A stretch of 44,108 bases of DNA, taken from a virus. Its lineage: Duplodnaviria; Caudoviricetes. Each line of letters starts with the position of its first letter. Position 1 is the stretch's first letter. The DNA lies in the IMG/VR virus record IMGVR_UViG_3300032143_000004, positions 1 to 44,108 of that record; one strand, written 5' to 3'. The position numbers and the translations under genes are program-made. Positions 8,681-23,354 of the stretch are shown piece by piece. The notes beneath the pieces were generated by a model, which did not search any database, was not told the DNA's origin, and worked only from the letters and a program-made list of their open reading frames with translations.

Positions 8681-9193
8681 ATGAGAAGTAATGTTCCAAT
8701 AACAAGGTTAGGTAAATTCTTTGGAGATAGAGATTTTGAATTAGAAGTTGAGATGGGTCAGGAATGGCTTATTGGTGACATGAACTATACTTGCGTTCTG
8801 TATAAAATTGATAGAAACAAAATTAAAACTGACGATGTTTATGGTGAAGTTACTGAGGACGGAGTTAAATTTTTACCACCTATAGAGTTTAACGCTCAAA
8901 TAACGGTTGCTGCGCCTGAAAACAAATTTATTGGCACTACAAGAATGGATCAGTTTGAGCCAGGTAATATTACAATTTCAGTTTATTTAAAAACTTTAGA
9001 AAACTTAAACATTGATGTTGATTTTGGTGACTACATTGGATACTATGACAGTGAAAATTTTGTTCGTTATTATACTGTTATTAACGATGGTCGTGTAATA
9101 TCTGACACAAAACACACATATAAAGGATTTAAACCTTTTTATAGAACAATAATCGCGGCTCCTGTTGGACCAAATGAATTTAGAGGATTATAA
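8681..9193 (+). CDS. Putative head closure/neck protein (T4 gp14-like)
   Basis: DDVYGEV..., DFGDYIGY pattern; first gene of tail module, upstream of terminator and sheath. Confidence 0.6.
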   Translation: MRSNVPITRLGKFFGDRDFELEVEMGQEWLIGDMNYTCVLYKIDRNKIKTDDVYGEVTEDGVKFLPPIEFNAQITVAAPENKFIGTTRMDQFEPGNITISVYLKTLENLNIDVDFGDYIGYYDSENFVRYYTVINDGRVISDTKHTYKGFKPFYRTIIAAPVGPNEFRGL

Positions 9194-10522: not shown

Positions 10523-13500
10523 ATGGCAACTAATAGTAAAGTTTTTGTTTCTCCTGGTGTTTATACCTCAGAGGTTGATTTAAGTTTTGTAGCTCAAAGT
10601 GTTGGAGTTACTACTTTGGGAATTGTAGGCGAAACACTAATAGGACCGGCTTTTGAACCAATATTCATCACAAGTTTTGATGAGTATCAAACTGTGTTCG
10701 GTGGAACATCACCAGAAAAATATATAAACACACAAATTCCAAAATATGAAGCGTCTTATATTGCTAAGGCGTACTTACAACAATCTAACCAATTGTTTGT
10801 TACAAGAATTCTTGGATTATCGGGTTATGACGCAGGACCATCTTGGTCTGTAGCAACAGTTGCGAATGTTGATGTAAATACTGTGGGTATCTACTGTCTT
10901 AGTGGTACTCAAAGTGTTAACACTTGTGACTTTATTTGTGTAGACCCAAAAGAGATCGAATTCTTTGTTGATTTCTCAGGATGTTCAAATGATACTGCAA
11001 CTATCGCATATAATAATGATTTTCCTGATGAGATACAGGCAATACTTTATAACCAATACGAACAATACAACGGAAGTACATCAACATTAGATGAACAAAT
11101 TAAAGATTTAATTTTTAGCGTAATTAGTGCTGACTCACCAACTACCGCAGAAGATGAAGTAATTTCTTACTTTGGTTCTATCCCAACGGTTGATTATGAC
11201 GCACTTTCAGGATATAGTGCATCAACAAATGTATTCGAAGTTCCTTCTGTTTCATTAAACGATACTGATTTGACTTCAGCACTTAACGATTCGTGGTATT
11301 ACGCTTTATTTGAAAATACGGGTAATTATCAGTACTCAGGATATTCCTTCTACGCAAATGTAACTGGATTAACTCAGATTATTTTTACCTCAACAACAAC
11401 TAGTACCTCAACAACGACTACTACAACTAGTCCTTGTCCTACACCAATACCAACAACTACAACAACGACTACAGTACAACCTGTAAATTGTTACAACGGT
11501 ACTATATATGGTAAATTATATTACTATACAGGTACATCTTATAGTGATTACGATAATGTTGTGGTAGGTACATTAAGATCAAGAGGTGTTGCAACTTACA
11601 CAAACGCAACTAACCCAGTATACTCTGTAACTGGAATAACTAATGTGTCTTTAAACATGGCAGGTCAATATTCGGGAGTACTTAAAAATCCTTATTTGAC
11701 CTTTGGTGTAAATGTAACAGATAAGTTTGGGACAAATTATAGTTTTGAAACATCTTTTTCTCAAAACGATCCCGAATATTGGTCAAAAGTATTTGGTATT
11801 ACTAACTTCCAAAAACCAAGAATAGAAGTTCCTGTTTTTGCTGAGGAGAACTTCCAATCGTGGTTGAACTATTCATGGAAAAAAGGTTATATCAGAGGAT
11901 TAAACCCTGACTTAATTTCATTAGACTCTGCACAATCAGGGGATTTTGATTCAATTGGTTGGTATTTAGATAGATGGCAAACACCAAACTCTCCTTTTGT
12001 TGTGTCAGAATTAAGAGGTAATAAAGTATATGATTTATTTAGATTCTATACAATTTCTGATGGTGATGCGGCAAATACATTACTAAAGATTTCAATTATT
12101 AACCAATCTTGGTCAAATCTAACATTTGATATTTTAATTAGAGATTATTTCGATACAGATGCAAATCCTGTAGTACTTGAGAAGTTTACTAACTGTACAA
12201 TGGATCCAGGACAAAATAGTTTTGTTGGAAATAAAGTTGGTACATTAGATGGTGAATACATGTTGAATTCAAAATATGTAATGGTTGAAATGTCTGAAGA
12301 TGCGCCAATAGACGCTCTTCCTTGTGGATTTAACGGATTTAACTTCCGTCTTTATTCAGGAGCACAATCACCATTCCCAATTATTAAAGGTAAATATGAT
12401 TTCCCTGGTGAAACTGTATGGAACCCACCTTTTGCACTTTCTTCAGGAGCGGTTAATTCAACATTAAGTCAAGGTGATAATGTAAGAAGAACTTATTTAG
12501 GTATATCTAACAGTTACGGATGGGATCCTGCATACTTCGAATATGTTGGTAAGACGGAACCAAATAGTACTTGTGATATTGATTCAGTTCCGTGGAACTA
12601 TATATCAGCAGGTTTCCACATGGATGCAAATGCAAGTGCATTAACAATAAACGATTTATATTCAACATCTGGAGATACAAGATTTATTTGTGGTAATTCA
12701 CCATTCATTACAGAACCAGAATTACCAACAAATGTGTACTTTAGGTTGTTTGCTCGTAAATTCACATTCTTAGTACAAGGTGGGTTTGACGGATGGGATA
12801 TCTATAGAGAATGGAGAACCAATGAAGACAGATTCCAAATTGGTAGATCAGGATTCCTTAACGGAGCTTGTCCAACATCAAGGTATCCAAATGCAGTTGG
12901 TTGGGGAGCGTTCAAAGAGATTTCTATTGGTGATGGTACCATGGACTTTGGAAACACAGACTACTACGCATACTTATTAGGTCAACAAACATTTGCAAAT
13001 CCTGAAGCAACAAACATTAATGTATTTGTAAGTCCAGGTATTGATTATGTTAATAATAGTAATCTTGTTGAAGACGCAATTACTATGATAGAGTTCAATA
13101 GGGCTGACTCACTTTATGTTTGTACAACCCCTGATGTTGATTTGTTTAGTCCTACATTAACAGGTGGTCAAGATATATTTATATATCCAACTGAAACGGT
13201 TGATAACTTATTTAACACAGGAATTGACTCTAACTATACGGCAACTTACTACCCTTGGGTATTAACAAGAGATAGTGTAAACAATACTCAAATCTATATC
13301 CCACCAACAGCTGAGGTAACAAGAAATTTAGCGTTAACAGATAACATCGCATTCCCTTGGTTCGCAGCGGCGGGTTACACTCGTGGTATTGTTAACTGTA
13401 TTAAAGCTCGTAAGAAGTTAACTCAAGAAGATAGAGACATTCTTTACAACGGTAGAGTTAACCCAATCGCAACCTTCTCTGATGTTGGTACTGTAATTTG

Positions 13501-13849
13501 GGGTAACAAAACTCTACAAGTAAGGGAATCGGCTCTTGATAGAATCAATGTGAGAAGATTGTTATTACAAGCTCGTAAATTGATTTCAGCCGTATCTGTA
13601 AGGTTATTGTTTGAACAAAACGACGCACAAGTAAGACAAGACTTCTTAAACGCTGTTAACCCAATATTAGACTCAATAAGAAGAGACCGTGGTTTGTATG
13701 ACTTCCGAGTAACAGTTTCATCAAATCCTGAGGATTTAGATAGAAACCAAATGACAGGTAAGATCTATATTAAACCCACAAGATCTCTTGAATTTATAGA
13801 CATAACATTCTACATCACTCCAACAGGAGCATCGTTTGAGAATATTTAA
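10523..13849 (+). CDS. Contractile tail sheath protein (T4 gp18-like)
   Basis: N-term FVSPGVYTSEVDLS; C-term YYPWV, PWFAAAGYTRG, VNPI, IWGNKTLQ, RINVRRLLL, IYIKPTRSLEFIDITF. Confidence 0.95.
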   Translation: MATNSKVFVSPGVYTSEVDLSFVAQSVGVTTLGIVGETLIGPAFEPIFITSFDEYQTVFGGTSPEKYINTQIPKYEASYIAKAYLQQSNQLFVTRILGLSGYDAGPSWSVATVANVDVNTVGIYCLSGTQSVNTCDFICVDPKEIEFFVDFSGCSNDTATIAYNNDFPDEIQAILYNQYEQYNGSTSTLDEQIKDLIFSVISADSPTTAEDEVISYFGSIPTVDYDALSGYSASTNVFEVPSVSLNDTDLTSALNDSWYYALFENTGNYQYSGYSFYANVTGLTQIIFTSTTTSTSTTTTTTSPCPTPIPTTTTTTTVQPVNCYNGTIYGKLYYYTGTSYSDYDNVVVGTLRSRGVATYTNATNPVYSVTGITNVSLNMAGQYSGVLKNPYLTFGVNVTDKFGTNYSFETSFSQNDPEYWSKVFGITNFQKPRIEVPVFAEENFQSWLNYSWKKGYIRGLNPDLISLDSAQSGDFDSIGWYLDRWQTPNSPFVVSELRGNKVYDLFRFYTISDGDAANTLLKISIINQSWSNLTFDILIRDYFDTDANPVVLEKFTNCTMDPGQNSFVGNKVGTLDGEYMLNSKYVMVEMSEDAPIDALPCGFNGFNFRLYSGAQSPFPIIKGKYDFPGETVWNPPFALSSGAVNSTLSQGDNVRRTYLGISNSYGWDPAYFEYVGKTEPNSTCDIDSVPWNYISAGFHMDANASALTINDLYSTSGDTRFICGNSPFITEPELPTNVYFRLFARKFTFLVQGGFDGWDIYREWRTNEDRFQIGRSGFLNGACPTSRYPNAVGWGAFKEISIGDGTMDFGNTDYYAYLLGQQTFANPEATNINVFVSPGIDYVNNSNLVEDAITMIEFNRADSLYVCTTPDVDLFSPTLTGGQDIFIYPTETVDNLFNTGIDSNYTATYYPWVLTRDSVNNTQIYIPPTAEVTRNLALTDNIAFPWFAAAGYTRGIVNCIKARKKLTQEDRDILYNGRVNPIATFSDVGTVIWGNKTLQVRESALDRINVRRLLLQARKLISAVSVRLLFEQNDAQVRQDFLNAVNPILDSIRRDRGLYDFRVTVSSNPEDLDRNQMTGKIYIKPTRSLEFIDITFYITPTGASFENI
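11387..11482 (+). repeat. Thr/Pro-rich low-complexity insert in the sheath gene
   Basis: Encodes TSTTTSTSTTTTTTSPCPTPIPTTTTTTTVQP; ACN runs with ACCTCAACAAC duplicated. Confidence 0.85.
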
Positions 13850-13896: not shown

Positions 13897-13917
13897 ATTT
13901 ATATGATATTTATTAGT

Positions 13918-14745
13918 ATGCGTTATAAAAAAGTTGTTAAAGAAATAATTTCTGAAATTATACAAGATCAGTTAACACCAACAATGAAATATTATGCTTT
14001 TGATTGGGATGATAATCTTATGTATATGCCAACTAAAATTTATTTAAAAGATAAAGACGGTAATAGTGTTGGCATGTCAACAGAAGATTTTGCCGAATAT
14101 AGGTCTGAAGTTGGAAAAGAACCTTTCGAATATGAAGGACATACAATAGTTGATTTTGATGATGAACCATTTAGAAATTTTAGAGTTACAGGTGATAAAC
14201 AATTTTTAAATGATGCAATGAAAGCCCCAACAGGTCCTGCGTGGGACGACTTTGTGGAGGCGGTTAATAACGGGTCTATTTTTGCAATAGTTACTGCAAG
14301 AGGTCACACACCAAGTGTTTTAAAAAATGCCACTTATAATTTAATTAAAAAAAACAAACATGGTTTAAATCAACAAGAGTTGGTTAAAAATTTAAGAAAG
14401 TATAGAGATATTACAGATGAGGAGGATATGACTGATGACGAACTTATAAAGACTTATTTAGAAATGTGTAAATGGCATCCTGTTAGTTTTGGGGAAGGTT
14501 CGGCTGCGAATCCAGAAGAACTTAAAGTAAGTGCCATGAAACAATTTATGGAATATGTTAGAACTTTATCACAAAAACTTCAAGAAAAGGCATATATTAA
14601 AAACAAAATTAGTAATTATTTTACACCATATATTGGTTTTTCAGATGATGACCTAAAGAATGTTCAATCAATGAAGAAACATTTTGATAATGAAAGTGGA
14701 TTAGATATTTATCATACAGGAGGAGGAAAAAAAACTAAATTTTAA
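13918..14745 (+). CDS. HAD-superfamily phosphatase-like protein (probable start ATG 13918)
   Basis: Motif I YAFDWDDNL, motif II IVTARGH, Lys in ELKV, motif IV GFSDDD; TATTTAT at 13907-13913 precedes ATG 13918. Confidence 0.75.
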   Translation: MRYKKVVKEIISEIIQDQLTPTMKYYAFDWDDNLMYMPTKIYLKDKDGNSVGMSTEDFAEYRSEVGKEPFEYEGHTIVDFDDEPFRNFRVTGDKQFLNDAMKAPTGPAWDDFVEAVNNGSIFAIVTARGHTPSVLKNATYNLIKKNKHGLNQQELVKNLRKYRDITDEEDMTDDELIKTYLEMCKWHPVSFGEGSAANPEELKVSAMKQFMEYVRTLSQKLQEKAYIKNKISNYFTPYIGFSDDDLKNVQSMKKHFDNESGLDIYHTGGGKKTKF

Positions 14746-14864: not shown

Positions 14865-15353
14865 ATGGCTGATTTATTAATGAAAATGCCGATCCCTTAC
14901 GAACCGAAAAGGGAGAACAGGTGGATTTTGAGGTTTCCATCATCACTTGGTATTAATGAGTGGTATGTTGAGACGACATCAAGACCAAAACTTACAATTG
15001 CCGCAACTGAAATTCAGTTCTTAAATACTTCAACATATGTTGCAGGTAGATTTAACTGGGGTGAATTACCCGTTACTTTCCGTGACCCAATCGGACCTTC
15101 TGCGTCTCAAGCGGTTATGGAATGGATTCGTCTATGTGCTGAGTCAGTTACAGGTCGTATGGGTTACGCAGCAGGTTACAAAAAAAATGTTGACCTTGAG
15201 ATGTTGGACCCAACAGGAGTTGTTGTTGAGAAATGGATTTTAGAAGGAACTTTCTTAACAGGATATGATGGGGGTTCCTTAACATATTCCACAGATGGTC
15301 TCGCTAAGATTACTTGCAACATGAGAATGGACCGTTGTATATTAGTTTATTGA
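14865..15353 (+). CDS. Tail tube protein (T4 gp19-like)
   Basis: EPKRENRW, YVAGRFNWGELPVTFRDPI, VMEW, LEMLDPTGVVVEKWILEG; 162 aa; follows sheath. Confidence 0.9.
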   Translation: MADLLMKMPIPYEPKRENRWILRFPSSLGINEWYVETTSRPKLTIAATEIQFLNTSTYVAGRFNWGELPVTFRDPIGPSASQAVMEWIRLCAESVTGRMGYAAGYKKNVDLEMLDPTGVVVEKWILEGTFLTGYDGGSLTYSTDGLAKITCNMRMDRCILVY

Positions 15354-15458: not shown

Positions 15459-16229
15459 ATGGAACAAGACGCATATCAAGCTGGTCAAGCAGAATTTAAT
15501 TTACCACACGATGTAATACAATTACCTAGTCAAGGTGTGTTTTACAAATCAAAAAAGAAATCGATAAAAGTTGGTTATTTAACCGCCGCTGACGAAAACA
15601 TTATTGCAAATGTTGACTCAAGAAAGAGTATTCAAGAAAGTATTATTATTCCCCTTTTAAGAACTAAAGTTTATGAAAGAGATTTAAGACCTGAAGAAAT
15701 GCTTGATGGCGATATTGAGGCAATTTTAATTTTTTTAAGAAACACTTCATTTGGTCCTGAGTATACAATTAACGCTGTAGACCCTAAAACTGACGATAGA
15801 TTTAAAACAACGATTGTTTTAGACGAATTAAATTACAAAAAAACAAAGTCTGCCCCTAATGAAGATGGTTTATTTGAAACCACACTTCCTGTATCAGGAA
15901 AAAAAGTCCTATTAAAACTTCTTAGTTTAAAAGACAAACTTGATATTGAACAATTAATAAATTCTTATCCTTCAGAAAGAACCGCACCAACTATCACCTC
16001 AAGACTTAACAAACACATTGTCTCAATTGAGGGAGATTCTGACAATTTAAAAATTGCAACATTTGTTGAAACTTTACCTATTGCGGACTCTAAATATATT
16101 AGAAGATTTATTTTAGATAATGAACCAAGATTAGACCTATCAAAAGAAGTTATCGCCCCGTCAGGAGAAAGAGTAATGGTCGACATTACTTTTGGGGTGG
16201 AATTTTTTCGGCCTTTCATATCAATATAA
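15459..16229 (+). CDS. Baseplate hub/tail assembly chaperone (T4 gp26-like); probable start ATG 15459
   Basis: LPSQGVFY, YLTAADENI, GDIEAILIFLRNTSFGPEY, LPVSGKKV, C-term FGVEFFRP; lies between tube and tape measure. Confidence 0.75.
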   Translation: MEQDAYQAGQAEFNLPHDVIQLPSQGVFYKSKKKSIKVGYLTAADENIIANVDSRKSIQESIIIPLLRTKVYERDLRPEEMLDGDIEAILIFLRNTSFGPEYTINAVDPKTDDRFKTTIVLDELNYKKTKSAPNEDGLFETTLPVSGKKVLLKLLSLKDKLDIEQLINSYPSERTAPTITSRLNKHIVSIEGDSDNLKIATFVETLPIADSKYIRRFILDNEPRLDLSKEVIAPSGERVMVDITFGVEFFRPFISI

Positions 16230-16362
16230 AACAAGTTTATTAGACGAATTTTATTATTTCTCTAGAATTTTTAGAACACAATATTCTGAGTTTATGTGTA
16301 TGCCAACTTATGTTAGAAGGTATTTGATTGGTAAATATGTTGAAGAAACAAAAAAAACTTAA
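16207..16362 (+). CDS. gp51-like chaperone extension in the +1 frame, probably reached by frameshift from the gp26-like gene
   Basis: +1 frame open 16177-16362: FGLSYQYKTSLLDEFYYFSRIFRTQYSEFMCMPTYVRRYLIGKYVEETKKT; no ATG until 16294. Confidence 0.65.
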   Translation, partial: FGLSYQYKTSLLDEFYYFSRIFRTQYSEFMCMPTYVRRYLIGKYVEETKKT

Positions 16363-16387: not shown

Positions 16388-18250
16388 ATGCCAGGTGTAG
16401 ATCCAATTTCATTAACCAAGAAGGATAAAGATGAACTTATTGAGATGATCAATGCCCAAAAAACTGAAATCGATCAATTAAAAAAAGGCAAGACCCGCGG
16501 CAAAACTGAATCGGCTGAAACAATTGAGGGTAGTAATAATATTGTAAACGCCTTTGACCCTACATCTTTAGCAAACATTACAGGTGTAATGACAAGTATG
16601 AAGGATGCAATGCTTGGCGTAATTAACCTTACAGACTTTGCGACATTTAAAGAATTAGACGAACTAAGTAATACAATACAACAAAATTTTGGTTTAGCTA
16701 GAGGAAGGGTTAGTGAATTTAAAACAGCAATTGCCGACGCAGCTCCTGAGTTGGCAAAAATGGGGTATACTCAACAGGAATCCGCCGATTTAATTGCCGA
16801 CTCAATGGACGGGTTAAAAAGCTCAGCTCTGTTAAGTACCCAAACATTAATTGAAATGGGAGCGGTTTCAAAAGTCACAGGTTTAGATGTTAACGAGTTA
16901 GCTGAGGGGTTTAGAAGTGTCGGGATCTCAATGCAAAAGGTTGGTGAAGAAATGAAAGGGGTTACTGACTACGCAAGAAGTGTTGGAATGTCAGTTAAAA
17001 CAATTTCAACAGGAGTTGAACAAAATATTGAAAAAATCAATTTGTATAATTTTGACAATGGTGTTCAAGGTTTAGCTAAGATGGCGGCTACTTCAGAAAG
17101 ATTCGGGCTTTCAATGACTAATACATTCAGAATTGCCGAAGAGTTATTTTCACCTGAAAACGCAATTAATATGGCGGCAGGACTCCAAAGGCTGGGAGTT
17201 GCGTCAAGTGCATTATTAGACCCACTAAGAGCTATGGATTTAGCCCAAAACGACCCTGAAGCGTTACAAAAAGAAATTGTTAACTTAAGTAAGGAATTTA
17301 CAACATTTAATGAGAAAACAGGTAAAATGGAAATTCTACCTGGAGCTCAAAGAAGACTAAGAGAGGTTGCTAAAGAGTTGAACATAGACGCTTCTGAGTT
17401 TGCAAAAATGTCAATTCAGGCAGGAGACTTTGATAGAAAGTTAAAACAAATTAGAATGCCTTCATTGGCGGAAGGTGATGATGCAACCAAAGAATTAATA
17501 GCTTCTATGGCTCAACTTGATTCTAGTGGTGTTGCAACAATCCAAGTCAAGGATATGGAGACGGGTAATTTAATAGAGAAAAATGTTGAAGAATTAACGC
17601 CTGAAGACATTGCTGATCTAAAAAAGGCAAACGAAGAATCTTCTCAATCTATTGAACAAATTGCAATTGACCAATTAGATATTACAAAACAAATTAATGC
17701 AACACTCCAAAGCGGAGAATTAATGGGGAAATTAGCTAGAGCGACATCCCCAACTATGGAAAAACTAACCAACTTTGTTTCTCGTAGTTATAAAGATGTT
17801 GCAACAAAATATAGAGATGAGTTAGGAACAACTCAAGGTTTAAGAGGTAAGTTTGAAGGGGTTGCGGGGCCCACGGAAGATTTCTTAGTTGCTGCGATTG
17901 ATGGAAATACTGCCAACCAAACAAAGGCAATTGCGGATTTTACTAAAGGTGCAATTGAAATAAAAGATAGTTTTTTAAGTGCATCTGAAAGTTTTGTACA
18001 AAATATAATAGAAAGCAGAAAAGATGATTTGAAACAAACTTATGGTAGTAATAATAAACCGGTTAACGAAACAAAAACAGTAAATGTGAATGTTAAAGTG
18101 GAAGGAGATGCTAACACCGCAAAAATGGATAAAGATCAAATAACGAATGTAGTACTAAAAGGGTTCCAAGACCCAAATTTATCAAATGAACTGTCTTATA
18201 CCCTAGATGGAGGTTCTGCCCCATCGGCAGCAACAGGTAAGAAAAATTAA
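16388..18250 (+). CDS. Putative tape measure protein
   Basis: 620 aa, Ala/Glu/Lys-rich helical composition; directly after tube and chaperone genes. Confidence 0.65.
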   Translation: MPGVDPISLTKKDKDELIEMINAQKTEIDQLKKGKTRGKTESAETIEGSNNIVNAFDPTSLANITGVMTSMKDAMLGVINLTDFATFKELDELSNTIQQNFGLARGRVSEFKTAIADAAPELAKMGYTQQESADLIADSMDGLKSSALLSTQTLIEMGAVSKVTGLDVNELAEGFRSVGISMQKVGEEMKGVTDYARSVGMSVKTISTGVEQNIEKINLYNFDNGVQGLAKMAATSERFGLSMTNTFRIAEELFSPENAINMAAGLQRLGVASSALLDPLRAMDLAQNDPEALQKEIVNLSKEFTTFNEKTGKMEILPGAQRRLREVAKELNIDASEFAKMSIQAGDFDRKLKQIRMPSLAEGDDATKELIASMAQLDSSGVATIQVKDMETGNLIEKNVEELTPEDIADLKKANEESSQSIEQIAIDQLDITKQINATLQSGELMGKLARATSPTMEKLTNFVSRSYKDVATKYRDELGTTQGLRGKFEGVAGPTEDFLVAAIDGNTANQTKAIADFTKGAIEIKDSFLSASESFVQNIIESRKDDLKQTYGSNNKPVNETKTVNVNVKVEGDANTAKMDKDQITNVVLKGFQDPNLSNELSYTLDGGSAPSAATGKKN

Positions 18251-18305: not shown

Positions 18306-21300
18306 ATGTCCGAAAGTTTTTTATCGTTTGGTAATTCAGAAACATTCCGAAAACAGTTATTGGTAAGAAATTTATCGCCATACAATGTGCCAGGAAGTTA
18401 CAACTCTCCTGGTAACCCAATTAATTATGAAACTAATCTAACCGTTAGTAATGTTACGGACTCACCAAACAACTATGTCTCAACAAATTTATTTGCGTCT
18501 GATTTATATCCTTTAAATGAATTTGGACCCGAAGGCGGATTTGGAGTCCCTATTGGTGTAAATTTAACACCTGTTTTAGAACCAAACCAAGGACCTTATT
18601 ATCCTTTGACTTCTGGTCAAATGGAGGGACTACCATTAATCAACGAATTTTATATTGAGTCTGCATATGTAACAAACAAATGGGGACCTTCAGGTGGTTA
18701 TAAAGATTTAGTTATAATTACCGATACTTTCCTAACAAACCCAATATATCAACCTTTTTGGAATCCAGGGTATTATAACTATTCATCATATTCGTTATAT
18801 AATGTTATTTTCCAAGACGACCCAATTGGTTCAAACGGGTCTTTATCTTCGGATAGTTACTTAGCAAAGATAGGAGCAACCCAACTTAAGTTTGCATTTG
18901 AAGAAAGGGTCGCACAAGAAATTAATCAGGCAACACTTGGTGTAATTAATTTAGACACCATAACGGATCCATTTACCGCTAGCTTATTAGCCACAGGACA
19001 ACAACCATTCTTTATAAGAGATTGGAGGATTACGGTACCTGAAAATCCATTAGCAAATGCCGTTAATTTAATAAACAGAATTACAGGTACATACTTTCCT
19101 GTATCATTTATACCGGGTGATTACTTTAATGAGAATTCGCCTTATGTAAATCCACAACAACAAAATGGTGCTTTAAATACCATTAATAATTTAACGGGTG
19201 GTTTATTATCTCCAATATTAAATAAAACTAGAAATCCATCAGAAATTTTTGTTGCAAATTCAGGTAATGGTACAAGATCAACATTATTTGCTGCGTTAAA
19301 TTATAACCTATATAGACCGTCTTATAACATTGGGTTAATACAAGGTCTTTCGGCATTGGCAAACGCCCTTGTTGGTCAAGATAGTCCTGAGACTGGAACA
19401 TATTATGTTGGTAGCCCAAATTCAGAACCAAGTTTAATTGATTCGCCACCAAACCAAGTACCTGTTAATCAGTTTGGAGAACAACAAGCAACAATTGTTT
19501 ATGGACCACAAGAACTTGGAATATTATATGAAGGCAATGAAAGTCAATTAAAATTTGGTCTTAAAGGTAAATCATATACTGACGGTGGTGGTATTACAGG
19601 GCAATTAGTTTGGACTTCACCAAAATACAAAGGTAACGCAGGTTTTAGAGCAACACAAGGTGGTGGGGCGGGAAGTCTTGATGACGACTTTAATCAAATA
19701 TCTGCGGATTACTTACAATACCAATCTGTTGACATCCCATTCAAACCTGGATCAATTTTATATAACACACAAAGATTAATTGAATCCGCAGATCAATTAC
19801 AAGGTCAGGCTAGATTAAAACATGTTGGAACCGCAATTAATCAGGTCTCAAAAGTATTCAATGATGGGTACAAAGAATTAACAAAAGGATCACAAGTTTT
19901 ATCATATGTTAATCAGGCGGATGGAACACAAGCAGGATTAGAATACTGTAGAGTTTTCCAAAAAGACACCCCTTATTATACTTACGCTGACTTACAAAAA
20001 TCTGACGGTATTACCAAAACAGGTCGTCAGTTTGATTATTCAGTGTTAGATAACACTTATAACTTGAACATTGCTCCTTTAAGAAACCCTGGATCAACAA
20101 ATATAGTTGACAATAAAGTAAAAAAATATATGTTCTCCCTTGAGAACTTAGCTTGGAGAACTTCAGATAGACCTGGATTTACTTACGATGAATTACCAAC
20201 ATGTGAGAAAGGGCCTAATGGAGGAAGAATTATGTGGTTCCCACCTTATAACTTAACATTCTCTGATGATTCACGACCTGAATTTAACCCAACAACATTC
20301 TTAGGTAGACCTGAACCAATATATACCTACAAAAACACCGCTAGAAGTGGACAATTAAGTTGGACAATTATTGTTGATAATCCAGCCATGATGAATACAA
20401 TCATTGAAAAACAAATGAAGGGAGCTAATAAAGATAGAGTACAAAGTATTATTGATTCGTTTTTTGCAGGTTGTATGAAGTATGATTTATATGAATTGGC
20501 GGCAAAGTTTAACACAATACCCTCTAAAGATTTATATACTTACCAACAAATTTTAAATAACCCACGATTAACTTCCGAAGAACAAATACAAGTTTTACAA
20601 AGTATTCCTGTCAATAATGAAGGCGGTAATGTAGGTAAGGTTTCAAACGCCGACGATATCCCAAATTCTACCGCAAATGGAAATCAAGAAGCCCAAAACC
20701 CACAATTTGAAACTGTTGATTTGACATCAAAATATGAGGGATATGGTTTTTATTTCCATAATGACATTCCAAAATCAAAGCTAACAACTGGTCCATATAA
20801 TGATTATTATAATGCATACTTGGGTTTACAAAATGGTGTTTACACAACACAAGCACCACAAAAAGTTATATCAGGTACTGATGTATTTTTAGGATCAGGA
20901 GTTCAAAATTTCTTTAATGAAGTTGTTATTGGTAATTTTAATTTTATTTCAACAGAATTATTAAAACAGATAGAAGAGATTTTGGTAAATCAAAATGGTA
21001 AAATTGATATTGAAATGATAGGTTCGGCCTCAGCAGTTGCGGCAGTGTCGTATAATCAATCCCTCTCTGAAAGAAGAAATAATTCAGTACTCCAATGGTT
21101 TTTACAACAACCACTTTCAGGAGGTACAACAATTAAAAAATATTATGACGATAAAAAGTTTAATCTTGTATTAAACCCTAATGGTGAAGAAATTGTAATT
21201 GCTAAAACAAGAGCAGAGGCGGCAGCTACGGAAACACCTACCGATGTAAGTGTTAATAATGCTCAAGGAGGAAATATTTTAACTTCGAGTGTTGATTGTA

Positions 21301-23354
21301 GAAATAATGTTAAAGATGCATTTTATAATCCACCTAAAGTGACCTCACAGGCCGAATGGTATAGTGTTCCTGCAATGGCATGTAGAAGGGTTGCCATAAA
21401 TAAAATTGTTGCAACAGTACAAAAGAAACCTGAAGTACCCGTTATTCCACCACCTGTGGTAATTGAAACAACTAGTAACAACCCACAAAATATTCTAACA
21501 GGGATTACTCAAAGTATTAAACCTGAACCTAAAATTACTATTGAACAAAAATTAAAAGAAGGAATTTCTAAAAAAATATTAAGAAATTTATTTACGGAAT
21601 GTGATTATTTTGAGGTTATTAAAGAAACAAATCCGATGATCTACGACACCATTAAAGATAGAGTTAAATTCTTTAGCCCATCATTCCACTCAATGACACC
21701 TGAAGGTTTAAATGCTAGATTAACATTTTTACATCAGTGTACAAGACCTGGACAAACAATTCCTATTATTGGACCTGACGGTAGACCAAAATATAACGAC
21801 GCATTAAATACTTCATTTGGGGCACCACCGGTTTTAGTGTTAAGAATTGGTGACTTTTTTAATACTAAAATTATACCAACATCATTGGGTCTTACATTTG
21901 AAGGTTTAGATTTAAACCCTGAAGGTATTGGAATACAACCAATGTTGGCAAAAATAACATTGGCATTCAATATTATTGGAGGTATGGGACTTAAAGAACC
22001 TGTACAACAATTACAAAACGCACTTTCATTTAATTTTTATGCGAATACAGAAATTTATGATGAAAGAGCGACCGCAACTGAAGACACAAGTAAGTTAGAC
22101 AAATATGTTGTAAATAAAATAACAGGAGGAGTTCCACCTGTTAGTCAACAACAAGTCAATCAAATTAATAGTGTACAACCACAAAAAGGTGGAGATACAG
22201 TTGGTACAGTGGTCGATGGGACTACTATGGACTACGCAGGGATATATACAGAGTTAGAAGGAAAATTACAAGAGTATTTTAAAGCCTATAGCGATATGTT
22301 GAGTAAAACAACATTGGATTATTCATATGGAGCAACTTTAATTGCTATGAAAAATAACAACTATACTAAAGGTGAACTTTGTGGATACATAAATGAAGCG
22401 GTTGATACCGTTATTTACGGTAAGTCTAATGAGTATCAAAATTTTGTTGATGATTTATATGGTGAGGTAGTAAAAGACATTAATCAAGGAGATAACCCAA
22501 TTTTATTTGCGGCAATAAATAGATCGGGCGGTATAACCGGAAAACAAAAAAGAGAATTAGAAGAAAAATTAAAAATACAAGTCTCTACAGGTAAAGGGGA
22601 GATATTAAACTCAATAACTAACAACACGACTAACATAGTTTCTGTAGAAAATGAATTGAACTATATTTTTAGACGGTTAGATGTGGTATCATCAAAATTA
22701 GATGGAAGGTTACAAGGGACAAACGAACCATTATTATATGACTTAAGTGGTGATACATTCTTCAGTGTAAACGAAAATAGCGGATCTATTATAGATGTAC
22801 TCACATTTAAAGTTAAAAATATTATTGAAAGTTTTAATGGTTTAATTTATGCTCGAGGATTTACAGGTGATTACTTTAAGAAAAGTAACTCTACTATTGA
22901 TAGTGGAAGTGGTTGTTCGTCTGTTGTTGTTGGGTTAAACCAATCTTTCTTTGTTGATTGTCCTACTAATAGATATTATAGTCTTATGTCGCCATTCTTC
23001 TTAACTGAAAATAAATACCAAACAATGGTTAATGAGTTGACAAGCGGTAATGAAGTTAAAGGTGATACTAATTTGGTTGATCTTATTAAAAGTACATGTG
23101 AAAATTTAAAAAACACACAATTCGCACCTTTTAAAACTTATTGGGAGGGAGAATTGAAAAAGTTAGTTGACGACCCAATTTATATACAAGCCTCAACTTG
23201 GAAGATACCAGATAACACAGTAAAAACTTGTGGTTACAAAACTCCGGCTGAAGGCAACTTAAACACAAAAACTAAAAGAATTAAAGACTTATATTCAAAA
23301 AATAACTTGAATGAACAAAAATCAACATTCAACGGGAAAGTAACATTTAATTAA
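18306..23354 (+). CDS. Large baseplate protein: tube-initiator-like segments with an internal OmpA-like domain
   Basis: FPPYNLTFSD..FLGRPEPIYTYKNTARSGQL and PPVLVLRIGDF..QPMLAKITLAF segments; OmpA-like FYFHND..IEMIGSAS..YNQSLSERR..RRV; follows TMP. Confidence 0.6.
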   Translation: MSESFLSFGNSETFRKQLLVRNLSPYNVPGSYNSPGNPINYETNLTVSNVTDSPNNYVSTNLFASDLYPLNEFGPEGGFGVPIGVNLTPVLEPNQGPYYPLTSGQMEGLPLINEFYIESAYVTNKWGPSGGYKDLVIITDTFLTNPIYQPFWNPGYYNYSSYSLYNVIFQDDPIGSNGSLSSDSYLAKIGATQLKFAFEERVAQEINQATLGVINLDTITDPFTASLLATGQQPFFIRDWRITVPENPLANAVNLINRITGTYFPVSFIPGDYFNENSPYVNPQQQNGALNTINNLTGGLLSPILNKTRNPSEIFVANSGNGTRSTLFAALNYNLYRPSYNIGLIQGLSALANALVGQDSPETGTYYVGSPNSEPSLIDSPPNQVPVNQFGEQQATIVYGPQELGILYEGNESQLKFGLKGKSYTDGGGITGQLVWTSPKYKGNAGFRATQGGGAGSLDDDFNQISADYLQYQSVDIPFKPGSILYNTQRLIESADQLQGQARLKHVGTAINQVSKVFNDGYKELTKGSQVLSYVNQADGTQAGLEYCRVFQKDTPYYTYADLQKSDGITKTGRQFDYSVLDNTYNLNIAPLRNPGSTNIVDNKVKKYMFSLENLAWRTSDRPGFTYDELPTCEKGPNGGRIMWFPPYNLTFSDDSRPEFNPTTFLGRPEPIYTYKNTARSGQLSWTIIVDNPAMMNTIIEKQMKGANKDRVQSIIDSFFAGCMKYDLYELAAKFNTIPSKDLYTYQQILNNPRLTSEEQIQVLQSIPVNNEGGNVGKVSNADDIPNSTANGNQEAQNPQFETVDLTSKYEGYGFYFHNDIPKSKLTTGPYNDYYNAYLGLQNGVYTTQAPQKVISGTDVFLGSGVQNFFNEVVIGNFNFISTELLKQIEEILVNQNGKIDIEMIGSASAVAAVSYNQSLSERRNNSVLQWFLQQPLSGGTTIKKYYDDKKFNLVLNPNGEEIVIAKTRAEAAATETPTDVSVNNAQGGNILTSSVDCRNNVKDAFYNPPKVTSQAEWYSVPAMACRRVAINKIVATVQKKPEVPVIPPPVVIETTSNNPQNILTGITQSIKPEPKITIEQKLKEGISKKILRNLFTECDYFEVIKETNPMIYDTIKDRVKFFSPSFHSMTPEGLNARLTFLHQCTRPGQTIPIIGPDGRPKYNDALNTSFGAPPVLVLRIGDFFNTKIIPTSLGLTFEGLDLNPEGIGIQPMLAKITLAFNIIGGMGLKEPVQQLQNALSFNFYANTEIYDERATATEDTSKLDKYVVNKITGGVPPVSQQQVNQINSVQPQKGGDTVGTVVDGTTMDYAGIYTELEGKLQEYFKAYSDMLSKTTLDYSYGATLIAMKNNNYTKGELCGYINEAVDTVIYGKSNEYQNFVDDLYGEVVKDINQGDNPILFAAINRSGGITGKQKRELEEKLKIQVSTGKGEILNSITNNTTNIVSVENELNYIFRRLDVVSSKLDGRLQGTNEPLLYDLSGDTFFSVNENSGSIIDVLTFKVKNIIESFNGLIYARGFTGDYFKKSNSTIDSGSGCSSVVVGLNQSFFVDCPTNRYYSLMSPFFLTENKYQTMVNELTSGNEVKGDTNLVDLIKSTCENLKNTQFAPFKTYWEGELKKLVDDPIYIQASTWKIPDNTVKTCGYKTPAEGNLNTKTKRIKDLYSKNNLNEQKSTFNGKVTFN

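Follow-up and report, generated by a model that had tools for sequence, protein, structure and literature searches.

How, if at all, is a reading frame translated that remains open across and beyond the end of a phage chaperone gene and offers no ATG until well past that end? The question is raised by the tail module of a large myophage, an uncultured freshwater phage, of which a stretch of 44,108 nucleotides, here termed the window, was analyzed. Near-identical DNA is found in sediment metagenomes, and partial matches occur in lake metatranscriptomes. The chaperone gene begins at ATG 15459 and encodes 256 residues, ending at the zero-frame stop TAA 16227-16229. The +1 frame is open from 16177 to 16362 and has its first ATG at 16294; the -1 frame closes at TAG 16241. 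Shortly before the zero-frame stop, GAA (16200-16202) is followed by TTT TTT CGG (16203-16211). An earlier note on this DNA had proposed that a programmed +1 frameshift at these codons joins the two frames, and its coordinates for the site, the stops, the span of the +1 frame and the first ATG were all confirmed by direct reading of the letters. The features of the region are as follows.

10523-13849: sheath gene of the tail module
14865..15353, + strand: tail tube gene (phrog_4542, E 4.4e-20)
15459..16229, + strand: tail assembly chaperone, short form (TAC-N / G-like, T4 gp26-type), 256 aa (PF12322, phrog_150)
16154..16199, + strand: conserved 5' RNA hairpin (folding z, kept pairs, compensatory changes)
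16203..16211, + strand: predicted shift site UUU UUU CGG (codon conservation)
16210..16362, + strand: +1-frame extension (TAC-C / T-like domain; open frame, conservation)
16388..18250, + strand: tape-measure-like gene, 620 aa, so named from its position

Between the sheath and tube genes, a 280-aa gene at 13903-14745 carries a DWDDN motif and appears HAD-like by eye, with no family match. A 1682-aa protein is encoded immediately after the tape-measure-like gene (18306-23354), and its residues 884-940 give a weak match to the OmpA family (peptidoglycan-binding; E 0.015).

The locus was compared with 240 others, gathered in three scans as the best 80 of 81, the best 80 of 538, and the best 80 of 493 matches. 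The two larger scans (538 and 493 matches) used an alignment that stopped upstream of the site and therefore involved no selection for the motif, and of the six patterns used in the scan with 81 matches, one lies just upstream of it, at the protein level. Together with the window and three annotated records this gave 244 loci, of which 11 with truncated genes were dropped. The remaining 233 genes collapsed to 162 distinct 3' regions; 160 of these were anchored on Gly-x-x-Phe-Phe, and the other 2 were read by hand. At 80% identity the 160 loci fall into 80 clusters, and at 60% into 17.

Gene order is conserved. A homologue of the tube gene lies upstream of the chaperone in 135 of the 137 loci with room for one, and of the 141 loci with room downstream, 140 carry a homologue of the 620-aa gene there. 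Neither PHROGs nor Pfam gives the 620-aa gene a family match as a tape measure; the label is given because of its position and because the gene in the same place is annotated as the tape measure in the cultured phages immuto, HSE3, SP-15, and LIS04. With that reservation, that the tape measure is identified by position and by the annotation of relatives, the chaperone gene lies between the tube and tape-measure genes, and the logic of the G and GT proteins of phage λ that had been suggested for this locus is supported, the second ORF having no conserved start.

The short form scores 26.9 bits against PF12322, the T4 gp26/gp51 family, where the cut-off is 24.5, and it matches phrog_150 with an E-value of 1.7e-11. 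Direct comparison of the chaperone profile with T4 gp26 by hhalign gave no match. An AlphaFold2 model of the short form has a pLDDT of 90.9, and among PDB structures it is matched best by 2ob9, a tail assembly chaperone from HK97, at a probability of 0.96 but with a weak E-value of 0.098 over 89 columns (rmsd 4.4). More distant homologues were also collected (P0147-P0274): many are 350-500 aa long, often with two matched stretches, and lack the FF[RW]P motif, having 'SLGGGS..F....F' at their end instead. These may constitute a second paralogous chaperone family with another shift site or none.

The earlier note had suggested looking for a conserved TTT-TTT-(C/T)GG, and the codons of the site, which lies close to where the first ORF ends, are very nearly invariant. 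All 160 distinct loci have TTT as the second Phe codon, and 157 have it as the first, with only 2 changes on the tree at the first. The codon that follows is CGG in 83, CGC in 42, CGT in 34, and TGG in 1; it is never AGA, AGG, or CGA, such that a zero-frame UUU is followed by CG(G/C/T) in 159 of 160 loci, as UUU is by CGN in HSE3 and GXN1. Elsewhere in these genes, 78% of Arg codons are AGA, 0.5% are CGG, and 0.3% are CGC, and the conserved Arg94 is AGA in 140 of 160 loci. The same preference is apparent across 18 long ORFs of the window, in which 286 of 381 Arg codons are AGA and 3 are CGG, in agreement with the earlier impression that CGG is rare here; among their 10,995 codons, TTT-CG occurs in frame just once, at the slip site. 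A point against the proposed slip is that in many bacteria CGU, found in 34 of the 160 loci, is not read by a rare tRNA. On a tree from which the last 20 codons were excluded, the wobble position of the second Phe codon shows no change, compared with 15-27 changes at seven other conserved Phe codons. The slip-site codons are thus under nucleotide-level selection against strong synonymous turnover.

A miscounted T run that concealed a single continuous ORF would have offered a trivial explanation, and none was found. One DNA contig spanning 16040-16460 and one RNA-library contig spanning 16139-16390, which may itself derive from DNA, are both identical to the window. No mapped contig has an indel in the T run at 16203-16208, although a rare slipped transcript would not show up in contigs. 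Faulty assembly does not explain the T count.

The second frame is conserved as well. It is open for 46-72 codons in 160 of 160 loci, where a loss of conservation would have spoken against the proposed shift, whereas the -1 frame reaches 40 codons in just 1 of the 160, such that the canonical -1 tandem slip (X XXY YYZ) is not what is found here. Just upstream of the site the +1 frame varies freely, with five outcomes (L, W, R, S, or stop) at codon -2 and S, N, or T at codon -1. At codon +4, its Ser is invariant in 80 of 80 clusters, and the overlapping zero-frame Phe is therefore forced to TTC, in 159 of 160 loci against a background of 18%. Coding constraint on the +1 frame begins at the site, and there is none just upstream. 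In 7 of the 160 loci, a +1-frame TAG stands two codons upstream of the site, with seven separate origins on the tree, and these stops rule out a start of the +1 ORF's own just upstream.

Following the codon for the landing Phe, the extension comprises 50 aa, modeled as three helices (pLDDT 90.8), with residues F1, S4, P33, and R37 invariant in the 57 sequences aligned. Calculated from the window sequence, the two forms would have 256 aa (29.0 kDa) and 300 aa (34.5 kDa), much as had been predicted (256 and about 300); a -2 slip would give 301 aa. Scans of the 57 extensions against PHROGs and Pfam yielded no consistent family, and a Foldseek search of the extension model against viral structures returned nothing at E <= 0.001; the second-ranked match, a 48-aa 'tail assembly chaperone' at E 1.4, is not counted as evidence. 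No natural in-frame fusion was found when 270 proteins (the best 120 of 4528 plus the best 150 of 2616) were compared with three extension profiles. In the database record of phage QdP_Psa3 (PV055685.1, L243 3644-3841; site TTC TTT CCC TAA) the extension is annotated nowhere, and the same is true of LIS04 (OQ999172.1, L263 after 1429); it is likewise unannotated after the hub gene in RsoM2USA, RaK2, and PA5oct (L250, L258, and L260).

An element absent from the earlier note, and a new observation here, lies immediately upstream of the site. Away from the site itself, the strongest synonymous constraints fall on a Gly GGG codon three codons upstream, on Ala GCC and Pro CCR codons 15-16 codons upstream, and on a Gly GGA codon, and these codons together fold into a hairpin at 16154-16199. 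It consists of an outer stem (16155-16160/16193-16198), a 9-nt 5' bulge (16161-16169), and an inner stem (16170-16178/16184-16192); 3-4 nt separate the end of the stem from the E-site codon. The hairpin of the window has a folding energy of -19.3 kcal/mol (z -3.5), with 0 of 200 shuffles as stable. Across the clade, synonymous resampling gave a mean z of -2.71 for the 51 nt before the site, and of the 40 clusters tested, taken as alternate ones from 79, 30 were below -2; this compares with means between +0.03 and -0.46 for 11 other segments of the chaperone gene.

The pairing is conserved as well as stable. The probability of the core stem exceeds 0.5 in 77 of 79 cases, and its four core pairs are kept in 159 of 159 loci (Mel-JY01 was left out). 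Departures from CCCC/GGGG number six, of which five affect the two strands together and one yields a G-U pair; the double-strand changes, A-U in L107, L116, and L231 and G-C and U-A in L122 and L211, represent two origins. Pairing holds in 87.8% of the cells of a 79-row alignment; shuffles give 80.3% (0 of 500 as high), and sliding lowers the share to 38-58%. The pair 16172/16190, which joins two wobble positions, changed jointly 20 times and comes first among the 265 column pairs that vary well. Remaining stem pairs rank between 10 and 661 of 842, with no standout signal on the tree, and compensation in the outer stem has only two origins. An Rfam scan returned one chance-level match. The comparisons show selection at three levels: the codons of the site, the +1 frame, and the stem.

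The hairpin is specific to this clade rather than general. Among nine distant phages with +1 extensions, SP-15 and LR756508 alone reach z < -2, as do 2 of 8 phages with -1 extensions, and single control segments sometimes do so too. A different hairpin, spanning the slip site, was considered and rejected: it keeps all four pairs in only 2 or 56 of 159 loci, and it is the upstream stem that keeps its pairs in all 159. As a separate observation, in four runs the RNA contigs stop at 16136-16166, close to the 5' side of the hairpin; these ends were not used as evidence, because an assembly break at a stretch common to many relatives could give the same result.

Taken together, the conserved site, the hairpin, and the conserved second frame make it likely that some ribosomes slip forward by one base. 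The programmed shift into the +1 frame that had been proposed is, on this evidence, highly likely to be correct, and re-pairing in the P site would very likely be the means of the +1 slip. A pause may occur when the P site holds the second UUU and the A site a CGN codon of low usage. The peptidyl-tRNA-Phe, paired with UUU at 16206-16208 and with UUU 16203-16205 in the E site, could then re-pair on UUC at 16207-16209, after which translation would continue in the +1 frame to give the long form. The hairpin would be opened as the ribosome passes and would form again in its wake, with 3-4 nt between stem and E-site codon; it would then drive the shift, taking the part that an internal Shine-Dalgarno sequence has in prfB. 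With a conserved UUU-UUU-CGN site and a hairpin upstream of it, there is thus a strong probability that a minority of ribosomes slip +1, giving a 300-residue form besides that of 256. By analogy with λ gpG/gpGT, the short form may coat the tape measure and the extension may recruit the tail tube. What we infer here is the slip and its efficiency, the role of the hairpin, and the binding partners.

As to the hairpin itself, the case for a stimulator of the +1 shift is evenly balanced, and it is made by analogy. An engineered upstream hairpin is reported to give about 60% of the +1 stimulation of an internal Shine-Dalgarno sequence with E. coli 70S ribosomes in vitro (PMC6321510), and a hairpin is reported to have stimulated +1 shifting in yeast and a spacing of 2-5 nt, measured for -1 attenuation, to have mattered (PMC3639245). 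The foremost alternative, which we consider rather unlikely, accepts the +1 shift and holds either that the G run is an internal Shine-Dalgarno sequence, as in prfB, or that the hairpin serves RNA stability or is a protein-binding operator with a conserved bulge. The Gly codon is indeed GGG in 154 of 160 loci and pairs with the anti-Shine-Dalgarno core at -6.0 kcal/mol. All five clade loci without GGG, however, have a matching change in the upstream strand, and the distance from the last base of the G run to the P codon is 8 nt, as opposed to the 3 nt stated for +1 stimulation in PMC5009743. Furthermore, the phage barely uses such sequences at its genes: a Shine-Dalgarno-like motif is present at 1 of 25 gene starts in the window and at 2 of 78 tape-measure starts in relatives. 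Another duty for the hairpin is suggested by the bulge, whose conserved GGA (77 of 80 clusters, against a background of 38% for this Gly codon) is explained by no model considered here.

The bulge, 16161-16169, also has a Ser codon that is always TCN. No pairing partner for it was found, and possible pairing with bases around the zero-frame stop showed no covariation beyond independence; the conserved bulge could be a protein-binding site. The 25 gene starts of the window have A/T-rich leaders, several of them (for example, at 8681, 16388, 18306, and 30744) preceded by a TATTTAT-like motif that is possibly a late promoter. Ribosomes of the Bacteroidia are reported not to read Shine-Dalgarno motifs (PMC10798248), and the near-absence of such motifs in the phage resembles this, which is a hint about the host rather than a determination.

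To return to the +1 slip, the earlier note had left its direction as +1 or possibly -2. In a Mu-like -2 shift, the P-site Phe-tRNA would move two bases back within the U run and one extra Phe would be inserted, giving the 301-aa product. Three of the 160 loci (L087, L152, and L169; two origins) read TTC TTT CGC, and the cultured phages HSE3, GXN1, and QdP_Psa3 read TTC TTT C. These variants favor +1, because tRNA-Phe would there be forced to re-pair with UCU at -2, whereas UUC remains intact at +1. The C after the U run, present in 159 of 160 loci, is needed for +1 only, and upstream hairpins reportedly oppose backward shifts (PMC6321510, PMC3639245). A -2 shift, which phage Mu is stated to use (PMC5009743), is accordingly very improbable, and the direction, judged from natural variants, is most probably +1. 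Two observations remain contrary. The first UUU, with its 157 of 160 loci and 2 tree changes, is not required by a pure +1 model and could reflect either a preference in the E site or a share of -2 slips. In addition, the +1 extension of the Listeria innocua phage LIS04 follows TTT TTT AGT (L263 1400-1429), where no pyrimidine follows the U run and +1 slippage from the second UUU would be poor, making it a candidate for a -2 slip or for a slip at the first UUU. SP-15 reads TTT TTT CAC.

Transcriptional slippage, in which RNA polymerase would drop one U with the aid of the nascent hairpin, or in which the hairpin and U run would form a weak terminator, is more improbable still. A GC-based stem followed by a U run does resemble the arrangement described for Roseiflexus IS630 (PMC5009743), but the run has just six T residues and is broken by the TTC-TTT variants, and a 9-bp hybrid presumably could not re-pair with the four bases before the run varying. 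The selection of CGN over AGR is a codon-level signal, a promoter and terminator scan called nothing at the slip site, and no contig has an indel at 16203-16208, with the proviso that contigs drop rare variants and that the RNA-library contig may be DNA. Equally remote is the reading of the second ORF as an independent small gene, begun at TTG 16192, at an ATG further on, or by re-initiation once the stop is passed. In its favor, the equivalent TTG is present in 134 of 160 loci, and the downstream piece is a CDS of its own in the database records of several cultured phages. The TTG, which the earlier note had named as a possible start, is nevertheless absent from 26 loci, is cut off by the +1-frame stop in 7, and arises from the stem GGGG next to Phe TTT; the first ATG is at 13 different positions or missing (7 loci); and codon +4, where the +1 frame is already constrained, comes ahead of both the zero-frame stop and every later start.

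The programmed +1 shift also has a wider setting. Among 17 distant records picked by hand from the match lists, the extension is in the +1 frame in nine, cultured or distant (Mel-JY01, LR756508, QdP_Psa3, immuto, HSE3, RM378, SP-15, GXN1, and LIS04), which extend from a Phe-rich end, and in the -1 frame in eight (RsoM2USA, LR756511, XacN1, RaK2, 121Q, PA5oct, Atu_ph07, and S-PM2). The extension profile of the window clade matches the +1 set at 97.6% and the -1 set, which includes S-PM2 gp51, at 94.6%; the -1 set in turn matches the C termini of T4-type gp51 at 84%. Direct comparison of the extension with T4 gp51 by hhalign was not significant (probability 0.2-0.7%), and by language-model features in the Atlas it is nearest to clusters with PF28602 Gp51_C (0.92, on 10% of members). 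That the extension is gp51-like, as first suggested, is consistent with these transitive and language-model links, the direct comparisons being negative. In T4, genes 26 and 51 are separate and on opposite strands. The T4 record (L244 3803-4090, minus strand) has an internal in-frame start annotated within gene 26 (gp26').

The link from gp26/gp51 to the G/GT scheme that the earlier note drew is not new and is already in print for T4-like phages. Vladimirov, Gautam, and Davidson (2022; Virology 566:9, PMID 34826709) dealt with T4-like tail chaperones, reportedly gp26/gp51 specifically. Poly-T -1 signals are described in the TAC-N genes of T4-like phages (Vladimirov 2022, via PMC12846349), some of which have separate short and fused long genes (Vladimirov 2022, via PMC10885494). 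Gp26 and gp51 are described as hub assembly chaperones (Leiman 2010, PMC3004832). Conservation of the tail-chaperone frameshift goes back to Levin 1993 and Xu, Hendrix, and Duda 2004, as reviewed in PMC5009743, according to which the G-T shift is conserved 'except T4' and is -1, -2, or +1 in different tailed phages, with HSTV-2 very likely using +1. Among annotations from SEA-PHAGES, PRFect lists 350 forward cases in 2718 positive sites (PMC10885494). Thus, the G/GT principle, its reach into T4-like phages with a -1 shift, the T4 two-gene solution, and +1 tail-chaperone shifts in other phages are all already known. A literature search, mainly of openly available papers, turned up neither an account of +1 shifting for this clade nor one of a natural hairpin on the 5' side that drives such a shift in bacteria.

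What may be new is the combination, and we propose it tentatively: a natural bacterial +1 cassette made up of a 5' hairpin that refolds co-translationally and a PA-X-type UUU-CGN site, with which a large freshwater phage clade lacking Shine-Dalgarno sequences would set the ratio of its two chaperones by a hairpin in place of the prfB-type element, in a chaperone family that would have switched among -1, +1, and two genes. If the hairpin is the stimulator, a mechanism that the papers found demonstrate for +1 shifting only with hairpins that were designed or transplanted would gain a natural bacterial example, and the hosts of the phages concerned perhaps do not read Shine-Dalgarno sequences. 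Sites of +1 shifting on sense codons are difficult to detect, and only a few bacterial examples are known. Here, 160 natural variants already serve as a mutagenesis series, and cultured carriers of +1 extensions exist in Bacillus subtilis phage SP-15, Flavobacterium phage immuto, and Microcystis phage Mel-JY01. Annotation would also be corrected, the downstream piece being a separate hypothetical gene or missed altogether in several RefSeq and GenBank phages.

Set beside known systems, the locus would work like λ G/GT and departs from both the canonical -1 and the prfB types. As with λ gpG/gpGT, the gene lies between those for the tube and the tape measure, the shift falls near the end of the first ORF, and the best structural match of the short form, albeit with a weak E-value, is to the chaperone of HK97; in contrast to λ, there is no X XXY YYZ tandem slip, but a predicted single P-site re-pairing on a sense codon, in a chaperone of 256 aa with an upstream stem. 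With the T4-like chaperones it shares the family PF12322, short and (here predicted) long forms, and a poly-T signal at the end of TAC-N, the T4 pair itself coming from two genes; the T4-like signal is described as -1 by the citing paper, whereas here it would be +1, with UUU-CGN and a 5' hairpin, and the 2022 paper may list +1 cases of its own. With prfB and its engineered hairpin mimics (PMC6321510, PMC3639245) it would have in common a +1 slip of peptidyl-tRNA and a slow A site, along with a 5' duplex by the E site. The A-site codon, however, is UGA in prfB and a sense Arg codon, CGN, here, and the duplex is a natural covarying hairpin rather than a Shine-Dalgarno:anti-Shine-Dalgarno pairing or a designed stem; the 8-nt distance of the G run from the P codon and the co-variation of the non-GGG loci with the upstream strand likewise set it apart from a Shine-Dalgarno-stimulated site. 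In the site itself there is a likeness to PA-X of influenza A virus, whose site is given as UCC_UUU_CGU (PMC5009743), and to chronic bee paralysis virus and the amalgaviruses, all of which have an internal sense-codon +1 site of UUU followed by CGN. PA-X is made by eukaryotic ribosomes with, as described in PMC5009743, no stimulatory signal evident, and here there is a UUU in the E site and a stem upstream; no homology is implied by the likeness.
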